From Bacteroidales bacterium (GTDB lineage: Bacteria; Bacteroidota; Bacteroidia; Bacteroidales; F082), in contig JAKSMX010000010.1 of the NCBI GenBank assembly GCA_024400305.1, positions 18,283-82,282 on the forward strand: DNA of 64,000 bases, in the 5' to 3' direction. A program made the translations under genes and the position numbers. Each line of letters starts with the position of its first letter. Within the stretch, counting starts at the first letter, position 1. Below, in pieces: positions 43,077 to 48,840 of this stretch. Below the pieces are notes generated by a model that was not told the DNA's origin, did no database searches, and worked only from the letters and a program-made list of their open reading frames with translations.

Positions 43077-43122
43077 CTACATCAGCTTCTTATATCTGAA
43101 CCTTTTGGACTGTCGGTTGCCG
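43077..43122 (-). pseudogene. orphan remnant of an ettA 3' end (last 14 codons plus stop)
   Basis: Positions 43078-43122 match 47168-47212 at 38/45. In the minus sense it reads GNRQSKRFRYKKLM-stop, against GNQQPKRFRYKKLM-stop in the intact ettA. No upstream gene body is present. Confidence 0.7.
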
Positions 43123-43193
43123 GAACAAAGGAAGGTGAATATGGAATTTTCCCCAAAGACAAACAAAACCGCCGCATCTATTGGAAAAAATAT

Positions 43194-43201
43194 TATCTTT
43201 G
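43194..43201 (+). promoter_or_regulatory. -7 promoter box TATCTTTG upstream of hpdB
   Basis: TAnnTTTG match 32 nt upstream of ATG 43233. Confidence 0.45.
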
Positions 43202-43232
43202 CAAATTCAATTTTACCGAAACATTTATCATA

Positions 43233-46211: not shown

Positions 46212-46217
46212 GCTTCC

Positions 46218-47156
46218 ATGGACGCACCGCAAGCTGTCATCTTCGACATACAGCCGTTCTCTGTCCACGACGGCCCTGGCTGCCGCACGACGATATTCAT
46301 GTCGGGCTGCCCGCTGCAATGCCGCTGGTGCTCAAACCCCGAGAACCACGCCGGCAGGCCTCAGCTGATATTCGCCGGCAAGGTGTGCAAATGGGATTCG
46401 GGCTGCCGCGCCTGCGTTGGCACCTGCCCAAAAAGAGCGCTGACAGCCACCGGCAGCGGGATAGAACTCGACCGTAGTGTCTGCCGCGAGTGTACCACCT
46501 TCGAGTGCGTGCGTCTATGCGCGTCAAACGCCCTGCGCGTCTGTGGGAAGCATTATTCCGTCAACGACGTGATGGATGTGCTGCACCGCGACTCCAATAA
46601 CTGGGGCGGCGACGGAGGCGTCACCTTCAGCGGAGGCGACCCCCTGCTCCATCACAAGTTCATGAAAGCCGTCCTCGAAGAATGCCGGAAAGATGGCATC
46701 CACACCGCAGTGGAGACATCAGCCTGTATCCCGACAGAAAACTTCATCGACCTGATGCAACTCGTCAATTTCGCCTTTATTGATGTCAAGAACATGGACG
46801 ACGAGCGTCACATCGCCGGCACAGGTGTCTCCAACAAATTGATCCTAAACAACATCAGCGCACTTGTCGCATCGGGCTGGAACGGGAGGTTGGTGCTTCG
46901 CTATCCGGTGATTGCCGACTACAACGACTCCGACGAAAACGCCGTCAGGGTCATAGAGTTCATGAAAGCCAACGGATTGTTTGAAATCAACCTCTTGAAA
47001 TTCCACAGATTAGGCCAAACCAAGTGGGAACAACTCGGTCTGGCCTATCCTTATTCCACAGGCGGCGACGTCAGCAGCGAGCTGATGGAGCACCTGCAGT
47101 CACTCTATCTGGAGCATGACATCATCTGTTACATAGGTGACAAGACTCCTTTCTAA
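46218..47156 (+). CDS. hpdA: glycyl-radical enzyme activase (radical SAM with auxiliary ferredoxin-like clusters)
   Basis: CPLQCRWC (CX3CX2C) close to the N-terminus. Additional motifs CKWDSGCRACVGTCP and CRECTTFECVRLC. Confidence 0.85.
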   Translation: MDAPQAVIFDIQPFSVHDGPGCRTTIFMSGCPLQCRWCSNPENHAGRPQLIFAGKVCKWDSGCRACVGTCPKRALTATGSGIELDRSVCRECTTFECVRLCASNALRVCGKHYSVNDVMDVLHRDSNNWGGDGGVTFSGGDPLLHHKFMKAVLEECRKDGIHTAVETSACIPTENFIDLMQLVNFAFIDVKNMDDERHIAGTGVSNKLILNNISALVASGWNGRLVLRYPVIADYNDSDENAVRVIEFMKANGLFEINLLKFHRLGQTKWEQLGLAYPYSTGGDVSSELMEHLQSLYLEHDIICYIGDKTPF

Positions 47157-47166
47157 AACGGTTGTC

Positions 47167-48840
47167 TTACATCAATTTCTTGTATCTGAACCTCTTGGGC
47201 TGCTGGTTGCCGAGACGTTTGATCTTGTTTTCTTCGTATTCCGAATAGCTTCCCTCGAAGAAATACACCTGCGAGTCGCCCTCGAAGGCGAGGATGTGGG
47301 TGGCGATTCTGTCCAAGAACCAGCGGTCGTGCGAGATGACGACGGCGCAGCCGGCGAAGTTCTCGAGGCCTTCCTCCAAGGCGCGCAGGGTGTTGACATC
47401 GATGTCGTTGGTCGGCTCGTCGAGGAGGAGGACGTTGGCTTCCTGTTTCAGTGTCAGGGCGAGGTGCATGCGGTTGCGTTCGCCGCCGGAAAGCACGCCG
47501 GCTTTCTTCTGCTGCTGGTCGCCGCCGAAGTTGAAGCGCGACACGTAGGCGCGCGACGGCATGGTGCGTTTGCCGAGCTGTATCAGCTCGTTGCCGCCGG
47601 AGATGACCTCCCAGACGGTCTTTTCGGGGTCGATGTCGGCGTGCTGCTGGTCAACGTAGCCGATCTTCACCGTGTCGCCGACCTCGAAGGTGCCGGAGTC
47701 GGGTTTCTCAAGACCCATGATCATGCGGAAGAGCGTGGTCTTGCCCGCGCCGTTAGGCCCGATGACACCCACGATGCCCGCCGGCGGAAGGCTGAAGCTG
47801 AGATCCTCGAACAGCACCTTGTCGCCGAACGCCTTGCTGACGTTATGCACCTCGATGACCTTGTTGCCGAGACGGTCGCCGTTGGGGATGTATATCTCAA
47901 GTTTCTCTTCTTTTTCCTTCACGTCTTCGTTGAGCATCTTCTCATACGATTCGAGACGCGCCTTGCCTTTGGCGTGACGTGCCTTCGGTGCCATCCTCAC
48001 CCATTCGAGTTCGCGCTGAAGCGTCTTGCGGCGTTTGCTCTCTGTCTTCTCCTCCATCGCCATGCGTGCGGTCTTCTGGTCGAGCCATGAAGAATAGTTG
48101 CCTTTCCACGGGATGCCTTCGCCGCGGTCGAGTTCGAGGATCCAGCCGGCGACGTGGTCGAGGAAGTAACGGTCGTGCGTGACGGCGATGACGGTGCCTT
48201 TGTATTGCTGGAGATGTTTCTCGAGCCAGTCGATGGCCTCGGCGTCGAGATGGTTGGTAGGCTCGTCGAGCAGCAGGATGTCGGGCTCCTGAAGGAGGAG
48301 GCGCACCAAGGCCACGCGGCGGCGTTCACCACCGGAGAGGTTTCTCACCAGCGCGTCGCCGTCGGGGCAGTTGAGGGCGTCCATGGCGCGTTCGAGCTTG
48401 CTGTCGAGGTCCCAGCCGTCGTGCTGTTCTATCAGCTCGGTCAGCTCGCCCTGACGCTCGATGAGCTTGTCGTAGTCAGCGTCGGGGTCGGCGAACTTGT
48501 TGTTCACCTCCTCATATTCTTTCAGGAGGTCAACGACTTCCTGCACGCCTTCCTCCACGACCTGCCTCACCGTCTTGGTGTCGTCGAGCTGCGGCTCCTG
48601 GTCGAGCATCCCGACGGAATAACCCGGCGAGAACACCACTTCGCCGTTGTACGCCTTGTCCTTTCCGGCAATGATTTTGAGCAATGTTGACTTGCCCGCG
48701 CCGTTCAATCCTATGATGCCGATCTTCGCGCCATAAAAAAACGAGAGGTAAATGTCCTTTAATATCTGCCGTGACGGCGGGATGATCTTGCTTACGCCCA
48801 CCATCGAGAAAATGATTTTCTTGTCGTCTGTCTGTGCCAT
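47167..48840 (-). CDS. ettA: energy-dependent translational throttle ABC-F ATPase
   Basis: MAQTDDKKIIFSMVGVSKIIPP resembles the E. coli EttA start MAQFVYTMHRVGK. Two ABC cassettes (GLNGAGKST, GPNGAGKTT, LSGGERRR and LSGGERNR). Confidence 0.9.
   Translation of the reverse strand: MAQTDDKKIIFSMVGVSKIIPPSRQILKDIYLSFFYGAKIGIIGLNGAGKSTLLKIIAGKDKAYNGEVVFSPGYSVGMLDQEPQLDDTKTVRQVVEEGVQEVVDLLKEYEEVNNKFADPDADYDKLIERQGELTELIEQHDGWDLDSKLERAMDALNCPDGDALVRNLSGGERRRVALVRLLLQEPDILLLDEPTNHLDAEAIDWLEKHLQQYKGTVIAVTHDRYFLDHVAGWILELDRGEGIPWKGNYSSWLDQKTARMAMEEKTESKRRKTLQRELEWVRMAPKARHAKGKARLESYEKMLNEDVKEKEEKLEIYIPNGDRLGNKVIEVHNVSKAFGDKVLFEDLSFSLPPAGIVGVIGPNGAGKTTLFRMIMGLEKPDSGTFEVGDTVKIGYVDQQHADIDPEKTVWEVISGGNELIQLGKRTMPSRAYVSRFNFGGDQQQKKAGVLSGGERNRMHLALTLKQEANVLLLDEPTNDIDVNTLRALEEGLENFAGCAVVISHDRWFLDRIATHILAFEGDSQVYFFEGSYSEYEENKIKRLGNQQPKRFRYKKLM

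Follow-up and report, generated by a model that had tools for sequence, protein, structure and literature searches.

An orphan ettA 3' end beside a predicted 4-hydroxyphenylacetate decarboxylase operon in uncultured Bacteroidales: a probable scar of integrase-free recombination between alternative cassettes in one slot

The window analysed here is a stretch of 64,000 nucleotides from a Bacteroidales bacterium (GenBank assembly GCA_024400305.1, contig JAKSMX010000010.1, positions 18,283–82,282 of the forward strand). It contains the genes hpdB, hpdC and hpdA, which converge on ettA, the gene of a housekeeping translation factor. The hpdBCA cassette was bracketed by two direct repeats, at positions 43078–43122 and 47168–47212, identical at 38 of 45 positions and lying 4090 bp apart. 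An independent repeat search returned the same pair as the largest direct repeat of the region. Each copy stood beside a stop codon on the minus strand, CTA (TAG) at 43077–43079 on the left and TTA (TAA) at 47167–47169 on the right, and the translations of the left and right copies were GNRQSKRFRYKKLM and GNQQPKRFRYKKLM, respectively, each followed by the stop. The right copy is the true end of ettA, and the left copy is a decaying orphan without function. An original prediction, made from the letters of the window, had described the pair as a true end and an orphan, and both the coordinates and the repeat search agreed with it. In less decayed relatives the similarity extended for about 4 nt more, which brings the orphan to approximately 50 nt (43077–43126). 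The scar is probably the product of integrase-free recombination between alternative cassettes in one slot, a kind of event that is already known.

The resemblance of the two copies stood well above the background. The second-best 45-mer match within the window reached only 27 of 45 positions, and the chance expectation for at least 38 matches was about 1e-11 (binomial, all positions, both strands). No third copy was present in the window at three mismatches or fewer. For comparison, a scan of species-representative genomes with EttA gave 80 loci from Candidatus Limimorpha and related Bacteroidales, nearly all of them metagenome-assembled genomes (MAGs), to which extra contigs were added; these sequences are designated by L numbers below. 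Five of the 80 loci carried hpdBCA. The loci of the other 75 species contained no ettA 3' fragment; the sequence is therefore not a generic repeat. Such a repeat had been named in the original prediction as a finding that would count against it. The features of the locus were the following, in window coordinates.

36033–37312, plus strand: deoC and a VTT/DedA-family gene, the conserved left flank (TIGR00126; synteny in L001–L003, L016 and L086)
37301–43176, no strand: 5.9-kb segment holding big, the Rpn-like gene, the orphan and f54, not in L001–L003 (BLAST breakpoints 37297–37301 and 43177–43184)
38137–41868, plus strand: "big", a large FN3/LRR surface-protein gene, in L005 and L086, not in L001–L003
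41989–42987, plus strand: Rpn-like gene, 332 aa, always the neighbour of a TAG-type ettA end
42988–43076, no strand: spacer separating the orphan from the Rpn-like gene; its sequence in the window and L168 is unrelated to the hairpin spacer of L004, L005, L086, L167 and L169, which resembles a repetitive extragenic palindromic (REP) element
43077–43126, minus strand: orphan ettA 3' end, a decaying pseudogene fragment (TAG stop plus about 47 nt; 38/45 against the true end)
43127–43176, plus strand: "f54", the distal hpdB upstream segment, in L004, L005 and L167, not in L001–L003
43177–43232, plus strand: proximal hpdB upstream region, common to all hpd-positive relatives (homology with L001–L003 begins at 43177–43184)
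43233–45917, plus strand: hpdB, glycyl-radical large subunit of 4-hydroxyphenylacetate decarboxylase (NF033715, 1559.8 bits, cutoff 1150)
45951–46211, plus strand: hpdC, small Fe-S (gamma) subunit (NF033716, 102.7 bits, cutoff 50)
46218–47156, plus strand: hpdA, radical-SAM activase (NF033717, 477.8 bits, cutoff 420)
47157–47166, no strand: 10-bp gap between the convergent hpdA and ettA stops, kept in all hpd-positive relatives
47167–47216, minus strand: true ettA 3' end, the stretch matching the orphan (TAA stop 47167–47169)
47167–48840, minus strand: ettA, encoding 557 aa, the conserved right boundary of the slot (TIGR03719, 947.3 bits, cutoff 806.75)

The interval between the repeats was made up of hpdB, hpdC, hpdA and about 110 bp of upstream DNA, and the hpdA stop lay 10 bp from that of ettA, both as originally described. 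The three products exceeded the cutoffs of their NCBIfam equivalog models. The hpdB product carried PFL-like and Gly_radical domains and stayed below the cutoff of the indoleacetate decarboxylase model (625.7, cutoff 1100), and HpdC, encoded between hpdB and hpdA, carried the 4HPAD_g_N and HPIP_like domains (PF18671, PF18524). The window is predicted to hold a complete 4-hydroxyphenylacetate decarboxylase operon, with p-cresol formation as its predicted activity. On the other side of the junction, EttA also matched NF008775 over its full length (942.9 bits, cutoff 599), and ettA was 89–99% identical across the 80 loci. The 4.09-kb interval contained only hpdBCA, with no integrase or transposase, as had been claimed, and no terminal inverted repeats were found at the cassette ends. 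The junction of hpdA and ettA had been judged too short for a terminator, and no terminator-like site was found there. The orphan region matched no Rfam family. In the proximal hpdB upstream region, TATCTTTG at 43194–43201 is a putative –7 promoter box, which fits the Bacteroidetes –7 motif TAnnTTTG. This box lies in the part common to L001–L003, and the orphan would therefore not be needed for hpdB expression.

The five loci with hpdBCA were those with the most similar EttA (98.5–99%), and the cassette was always convergent with ettA. The MAGs bearing it are uncultured Bacteroidales from horse and ruminant samples. Two arrangements were seen. In L004 and L005 the order was that of the window: Rpn-like gene, orphan, hpdBCA, ettA. 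In L001–L003 hpdBCA abutted ettA through a junction of 10–16 bp, with no orphan, Rpn-like gene or big gene, and about 87 bp separated hpdB from the 146-aa VTT/DedA-family gene, followed by deoC. This second arrangement is the one that the original prediction had postulated for a donor. The slot content in L006–L020 was a secreted protein of 527–537 aa, and L016 showed a bare slot without a cassette (ettA, 640 bp, VTT gene, deoC). The contents between the VTT gene and ettA differ among relatives, and the region is therefore a variable slot in this Candidatus Limimorpha clade. In the window its left boundary genes are deoC at 36033–36875 and the 146-aa VTT/DedA-family gene at 36872–37312, the VTT_dom annotation being that of the L086 orthologue. 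Between alleles, the homology on the left stopped about 10 nt before the VTT stop, and on the right the difference started at the third base of the ettA stop.

This third base divided the slot alleles into two types. Every ettA end adjacent to an Rpn-like gene (window, L168, L004, L005, L167, L086 and L169) had a TAG stop, and every true ettA end beside hpdA or another cassette in the clade had a TAA stop. The junction between the orphan and f54 recurred in five other assemblies, namely L004, L005, L167, L168 and an L005-like record (P0002). The identity across this joint, where ettA position –50 meets f54, was 88–92%. The original prediction had implied a recent event; with the same junction in L004, L005, L167 and L168, the event is old or has spread. 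Exact-protein look-ups with the window EttA, Rpn-like protein and HpdB gave no match.

The two copies do come from different ettA alleles. The TAT/TAC, AAG/AAA and CTG/TTG differences, which are synonymous, and the TAG/TAA stop difference recurred among other orphans and true ends and are therefore allelic. Four substitutions of the window orphan (CGA, TCC, AAA) were seen in no other orphan, and most of the window differences are therefore decay after the event. The changes specific to this lineage included non-synonymous ones. In L004 and L167 the orphan had the ancestral form, which read GGCAACCAGCAGCCGAAGAGGTTCAGGTATAAGAAACTGATGTAG and was identical to the L002 true ettA end at 44 of 45 positions. 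The L005 orphan contained an in-frame CAG-to-TAG change, which makes a nonsense codon. The view that the copies are ettA ends that diverged in different genomes was thus half right: the alleles differ, by the stop and three synonymous positions, and the argument from purifying selection fails. The four substitutions are decay in the window lineage, absent from the L004 and L167 orphans, the L005 orphan carries its nonsense codon, and the synonymous character of four of the seven differences has a probability of only 0.02–0.06 under neutrality.

A further orphan was found in L086, an hpd-less locus located through its Rpn-like protein (90% identical) and with an EttA 99% identical to that of the window. 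Its gene order was deoC, VTT gene, a 248-aa open reading frame (ORF), big, a Gp49/helix-turn-helix (HTH) pair, Rpn-like gene, orphan, an AAA_14 ATPase gene, and ettA. The orphan was a 177-nt fragment from the ettA 3' end and matched the true end in the window at 92.7% identity. At positions 9133–9466 of L086 this fragment was fused inside-out to the final 154 nt of a VTT gene copy, the joint showing a 1-nt microhomology. Both fragments were 97–98% identical to the full-length genes of L086 itself; the junction is therefore young, and its breakpoints differ from those of the window. The order, ettA end and then VTT end, is the joint expected from two tandem copies of a slot segment. Because the junction of ettA –50 with f54 is common to the window, L168, L004, L005 and L167 and is older, L086 probably underwent an event of its own, in parallel, at this site. 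The original tie of the scar to hpd did not hold, for the scar goes with the module of the Rpn-like and big-protein genes, and the 177-nt orphan lies at the same place in a locus without hpd. An hpd-less relative with an orphan had been named as evidence against the original account; formally L086 is one, but its differing breakpoints point to a probable parallel event. Gene callers annotated the fused fragments as a 78-aa ORF. The AAA_14 ATPase gene had no close counterpart in the other fetched loci, and the Gp49 (HigB-like) and HTH toxin-antitoxin pair, at 6985–7664 between the big and Rpn-like genes, was not present in the window.

A third junction of this style was observed in L167, a window-type locus, and in L169, a contig of 3.1 kb. 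Upstream of the Rpn-like gene, both contained the 5' part of an hpdB gene, disrupted by a frameshift and still preceded by the promoter and by most of f54 (L169 957–1590, L167 1269–1379). In these independent assemblies the fragment was joined at about nt 540 of hpdB to the last 220 nt or so of the big gene. A short BLAST search had given no match for f54 outside window-type loci, and the partial copies in L169 and L167 were found by a later alignment. Since f54 also lies upstream of the hpdB fragment there, it belongs to the hpd cassette. Its left end was joined to different sequences in different contexts, and in the window it meets the orphan at the illegitimate junction.

In L169 the Rpn-like gene was followed by the REP-like spacer and by a TAG-type ettA end that was intact for 141 nt, up to the end of the contig. 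Compared with true ends of the consensus peptide, it showed 6–11 differences, all synonymous. These do not separate a live ettA from a young orphan, because such differences also predate a recent duplication. L169 may show the empty site that had been predicted, a long orphan of recent origin, or the outcome of an hpd loss by recombination between the repeats. The expected arrangement of ettA against an Rpn-like gene was seen only in this truncated contig, which carries an hpdB pseudogene fragment and may be a secondary loss. A AGTACTAA-rich intergenic segment upstream of a minus-strand gene was observed at 743–846 in L169 and at 10746–10851 in L086. It abuts the ettA stop in L086 and the left end of the hpd cassette in L169. 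This suggests that hpdBCA may first have been inserted right at the ettA stop of an allele of the AGTACTAA-segment type.

These events took place against a background of exchange. The trees of ettA, the glycosyltransferase gene, hpdB, hpdC, hpdA, deoC and the VTT gene disagreed with each other and with the presence or absence of the orphan. A check of divergence along ettA, proposed with the original prediction, showed a mosaic gene: the identity between the window and L005 was about 90% over nt 1–1100 and 97–99% over nt 1100–1500. Homologous exchange is therefore frequent among these species-level genomes. Because the gene trees are incongruent, they do not rank the arrangements by age. The next closest HpdB proteins (83–84%; L170 and L171) were located in unrelated Bacteroidota contexts. 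Their homology to the window spanned the hpdB ATG to the hpdA stop only, and their flanking DNA had nothing in common with the window, so that the cassette ends cannot be defined from it. Named HpdB homologues at 75% identity or less belonged to Negativicutes, Clostridia and Olsenella, and no plasmid copy of HpdB was found.

We propose that the orphan is probably the stranded last 50 nt or so of a TAG-stop ettA allele that once lay directly against the Rpn-like gene, and that two alleles of the slot have been stacked. One allele would have combined the big-protein and Rpn-like genes with an ettA ending in TAG; the other would have carried hpdBCA, with hpdA abutting an ettA ending in TAA. The two alleles would have come from closely related genomes. 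On one side, ordinary homologous recombination would have taken place in the conserved flank. On the other side, a single illegitimate join would have linked position –50 of the TAG-type ettA to the left end of the hpdB upstream region. The Campbell-type insertion of a circularised fragment would be an equivalent view of the same process. The functional ettA would now end in sequence of the hpd allele and the displaced end would decay, with no integrase or transposase involved. The observations behind this proposal are the anatomy of the locus, the two types of allele, the decay of the orphan and the junctions that arose independently, in parallel, in relatives; the recombination mechanism we infer from its end-products.

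Of the two parents, the type in which hpd abuts ettA was seen in L001–L003, and the type in which the Rpn-like gene abuts ettA was seen only in the truncated contig L169. Several points weigh against the proposal. Among complete genomes, none was found in which the Rpn-like gene directly adjoins an intact ettA of the TAG type, and L169, ending 141 nt into ettA, may represent the parental allele, a long orphan or a secondary loss of hpd. A join inside the homology of the anchor, which would be needed if hpd were the incoming part, is not the usual outcome of homology-facilitated illegitimate recombination. The L086 junction is known from one assembly, and a join with a 1-nt microhomology is not a typical assembly error.

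The final structure would be identical whichever allele was resident, and the sequence would not tell the resident from the arrival. In the original prediction the cassette had arrived at a resident ettA; the stacking of alleles from relatives stands, and either allele may have been the resident one. It is possible, at a probability that we would place somewhat short of even, that the polarity was the reverse. In that case hpdBCA already lay beside ettA, and a big-protein/Rpn-like module came in, anchored in deoC/VTT and with its free end about 50 nt inside the ettA of the donor, so that the orphan is the tip of an imported fragment and not the stranded end of a resident. Both hpd and the Rpn module are missing from the outgroup L016, and L001–L003 need one insertion where the window type needs two, which makes an hpd-first history at least as parsimonious. 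It also requires no duplication inside the anchor, and wherever the orphan occurs it accompanies the Rpn-like gene, even in L086, which lacks hpd. However, both polarities lead to the same final structure, recombination has scrambled the gene trees too far for them to give the change a direction, and the duplication of both flanks in L086 is not explained by a simple one-ended import. A further explanation is an in-situ tandem duplication within one genome: the whole slot segment (VTT 3' end, cassette, ettA 3' end) would have been doubled, the content of one copy would then have been replaced or deleted, and the internal junction would have decayed neutrally. The inside-out joint of the ettA and VTT 3' ends in L086 is the classical junction of this kind, with fragments closest to the genes of L086 itself, and rpn-containing regions have been reported to form tandem direct duplications with variable ends (PMC10400941). 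For the window we consider this explanation unlikely: the cassettes are unrelated and the alleles are of TAG and TAA types, which calls for extra replacement steps, and the window junction contains no VTT fragment and has different breakpoints.

The bracketing of a discrete 4.09-kb cassette by direct repeats, with an insert that restores the end of its target gene, resembles the elements that integrate into the 3' ends of genes or tRNAs, where direct repeats of the gene 3' end likewise bracket an insert and leave the gene intact. The two copies would then be attL and attR of a site-specific element targeting the ettA 3' end that has lost its integrase, a cis-mobilisable element. We regard this as highly improbable. 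Neither in nor beside the cassette was there an integrase. Unlike what is expected of such elements, in L001–L003 this cassette occupies the corresponding site without any repeat, and the parallel case L086 has a repeat of 177 nt with a different breakpoint. The distant hpdBCA copies share no flanks, and neither inverted repeats nor a plasmid copy were found. A site-specific integrative element was rejected on the missing recombinase and the inconstant repeat boundaries. A transposon was rejected as well, with no inverted repeats at the cassette ends and a diverged repeat of 45–50 nt, far longer than typical target duplications. That the two copies resemble each other by chance, belong to a generic repeat of the genome or result from an error of assembly has a negligible probability. 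Only the short length of the repeat speaks for such an origin, which is refuted by the expectation of about 1e-11, by the lack of another copy in the window or the 75 other species' loci, and by the same junction in six independent assemblies, the window included.

The Rpn-like gene deserves separate attention. Rpn (YhgA-like) proteins are recombination-promoting nucleases, and their neighbourhoods have been described (PMC5350276, PMC10400941). The assignment of the window gene to the PD-(D/E)XK nucleases, made in the original prediction, was supported by the spacing of the catalytic motif and not by the profiles. The protein stayed below every hidden Markov model (HMM) cutoff tested (PF04754, TIGR01784, COG5464 family); TIGR01784, with a cutoff of 52.1 bits, gave 22.9 bits and matched the C-terminal helix alone. 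Residues 1–249 matched no Pfam family even at E = 10. Residues D11, D60, E78, Q80 and R90 were invariant in 33 homologues, with nearly the spacing of D11/D63/E82/Q84/R94 in RpnA, the two sets being matched by position and not by a scored alignment. The AlphaFold2 model was of low confidence (mean predicted local distance difference test score, pLDDT, 61.8), and its order of elements (helix, helix, three strands, helix, strand) is compatible with a PD-(D/E)XK fold. A Foldseek search of this low-confidence model against the PDB gave nothing at E ≤ 0.001, and a profile search of the protein against PDB sequences returned coiled coils only.

The C-terminal part of the protein is a heptad-repeat helix encoded by 21-nt tandem repeats (7 aa, EKEAQIN-like) at 42789–42879. 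The copy number varied among 120 homologues, the lengths of which stepped by 7 aa (318, 325, 332, 339, 346), with 71 of the 120 in one mod-7 length class. The invariant M235 could be an internal start. The Rpn proteins of E. coli have variable 4-aa repeats and an intragenic antitoxin, RpnS. The window gene thus resembles Rpn in the RpnA-type pattern of catalytic residues and in a C-terminal helix with a variable number of repeats, and differs in its HMM scores and in repeats of 7 aa instead of 4. More than 7000 close homologues of this family occur in Bacteroidales. A metagenome scan with the protein returned only paralogues 57–75% identical to it, none of them near ettA, and no plasmid copy was found. 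In L004, L005, L086, L167 and L169 the spacer between the Rpn-like gene and the ettA end was a REP-like element of about 58 nt with the hairpin GGAACCGC...GCGGTTC, which also occurred as tandem copies in the window, in the intergenic segment 5425–5600. In the window itself and in L168, an unrelated sequence replaced this spacer and the last 30 nt or so of the Rpn-like gene.

At least three independent illegitimate junctions lay within about 350 bp of the ends of the Rpn-like gene, in addition to the swapped gene 3' end and spacer. They join ettA –50 to f54, ettA –177 to VTT –154, and hpdB +540 to big –220, and each makes direct repeats around a segment. Even so, we think it rather doubtful that the Rpn-like nuclease gene is the agent of the rearrangements and not a bystander. 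To our knowledge, the Rpn-promoted, RecA-independent joining of DNA or formation of circles has so far been seen only through overexpression in E. coli. If the gene were the agent, the junctions would be natural footprints of such joining or circle formation, and whole metabolic cassettes of gut Bacteroidales, the p-cresol operon among them, would be stacked and lost by this process. In either case, the junction sequences around the Rpn-like gene are natural material usable for testing nuclease-promoted illegitimate recombination in the wild. According to Zhong et al. (PMC10400941), the ends of rpn regions vary, inverted repeats and target-site duplications are lacking, and direct duplications occur in tandem; the present locus fits this description.

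The proposed stacking of two slot alleles has counterparts in known systems. In homology-facilitated illegitimate recombination (de Vries & Wackernagel 2002, Prudhomme et al. 2002 and Meier & Wackernagel 2003, cited in PMC5361080; see also PMC3240628), as here, related DNA is joined with no integrase through one homologous anchor and one illegitimate joint that has little homology or none. The 1-nt microhomology of L086 and the flank exchange evident from the mosaic ettA agree with such a process. Here, unlike the usual deletion of recipient DNA, the joint lies inside the region homologous to the anchor and gives a short duplication, and the mechanism is read from end-products alone. The displacement of C-terminal ends and the formation of orphan arrays are well known from the loci of Rhs, contact-dependent inhibition (CDI) and type VI secretion system (T6SS) effector-immunity proteins (Jackson et al. 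2009; Kirchberger et al. 2017, PMC5361080), and this type of scar is not new. There, too, an incoming module brings along a 3' end for a conserved gene, the former 3' end is displaced downstream as an orphan, and successive events stack modules. In contrast to those polymorphic toxins, the displaced gene is the housekeeping translation factor ettA, the modules are metabolic (hpdBCA), surface-protein or defence-like, and nothing suggests a functional retention of the orphan. The locus provides a clean comparative example of how uncultured Bacteroidales of the gut (Candidatus Limimorpha) gain and stack a 4-kb p-cresol operon and may lose it again. Recombination moves the operon in a slot that lies between two housekeeping genes in convergent orientation, with no integrase, transposon or plasmid.

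The remaining observations concern the genes to the left of the scar. The big gene belongs to one module with the Rpn-like gene and the orphan. Its 3' part, from 41018 to 41674, contained 8.4 copies of a 78-nt tandem repeat with 85% matches, and the relatives differed there. Farther to the left, on the minus strand from 13429 to 23705, the window held three tandem paralogues of a secreted protein of about 1127 aa, 47–89% identical to an L002 protein. In L002 the arrangement is different from that of the window, a single orthologue adjoining deoC.

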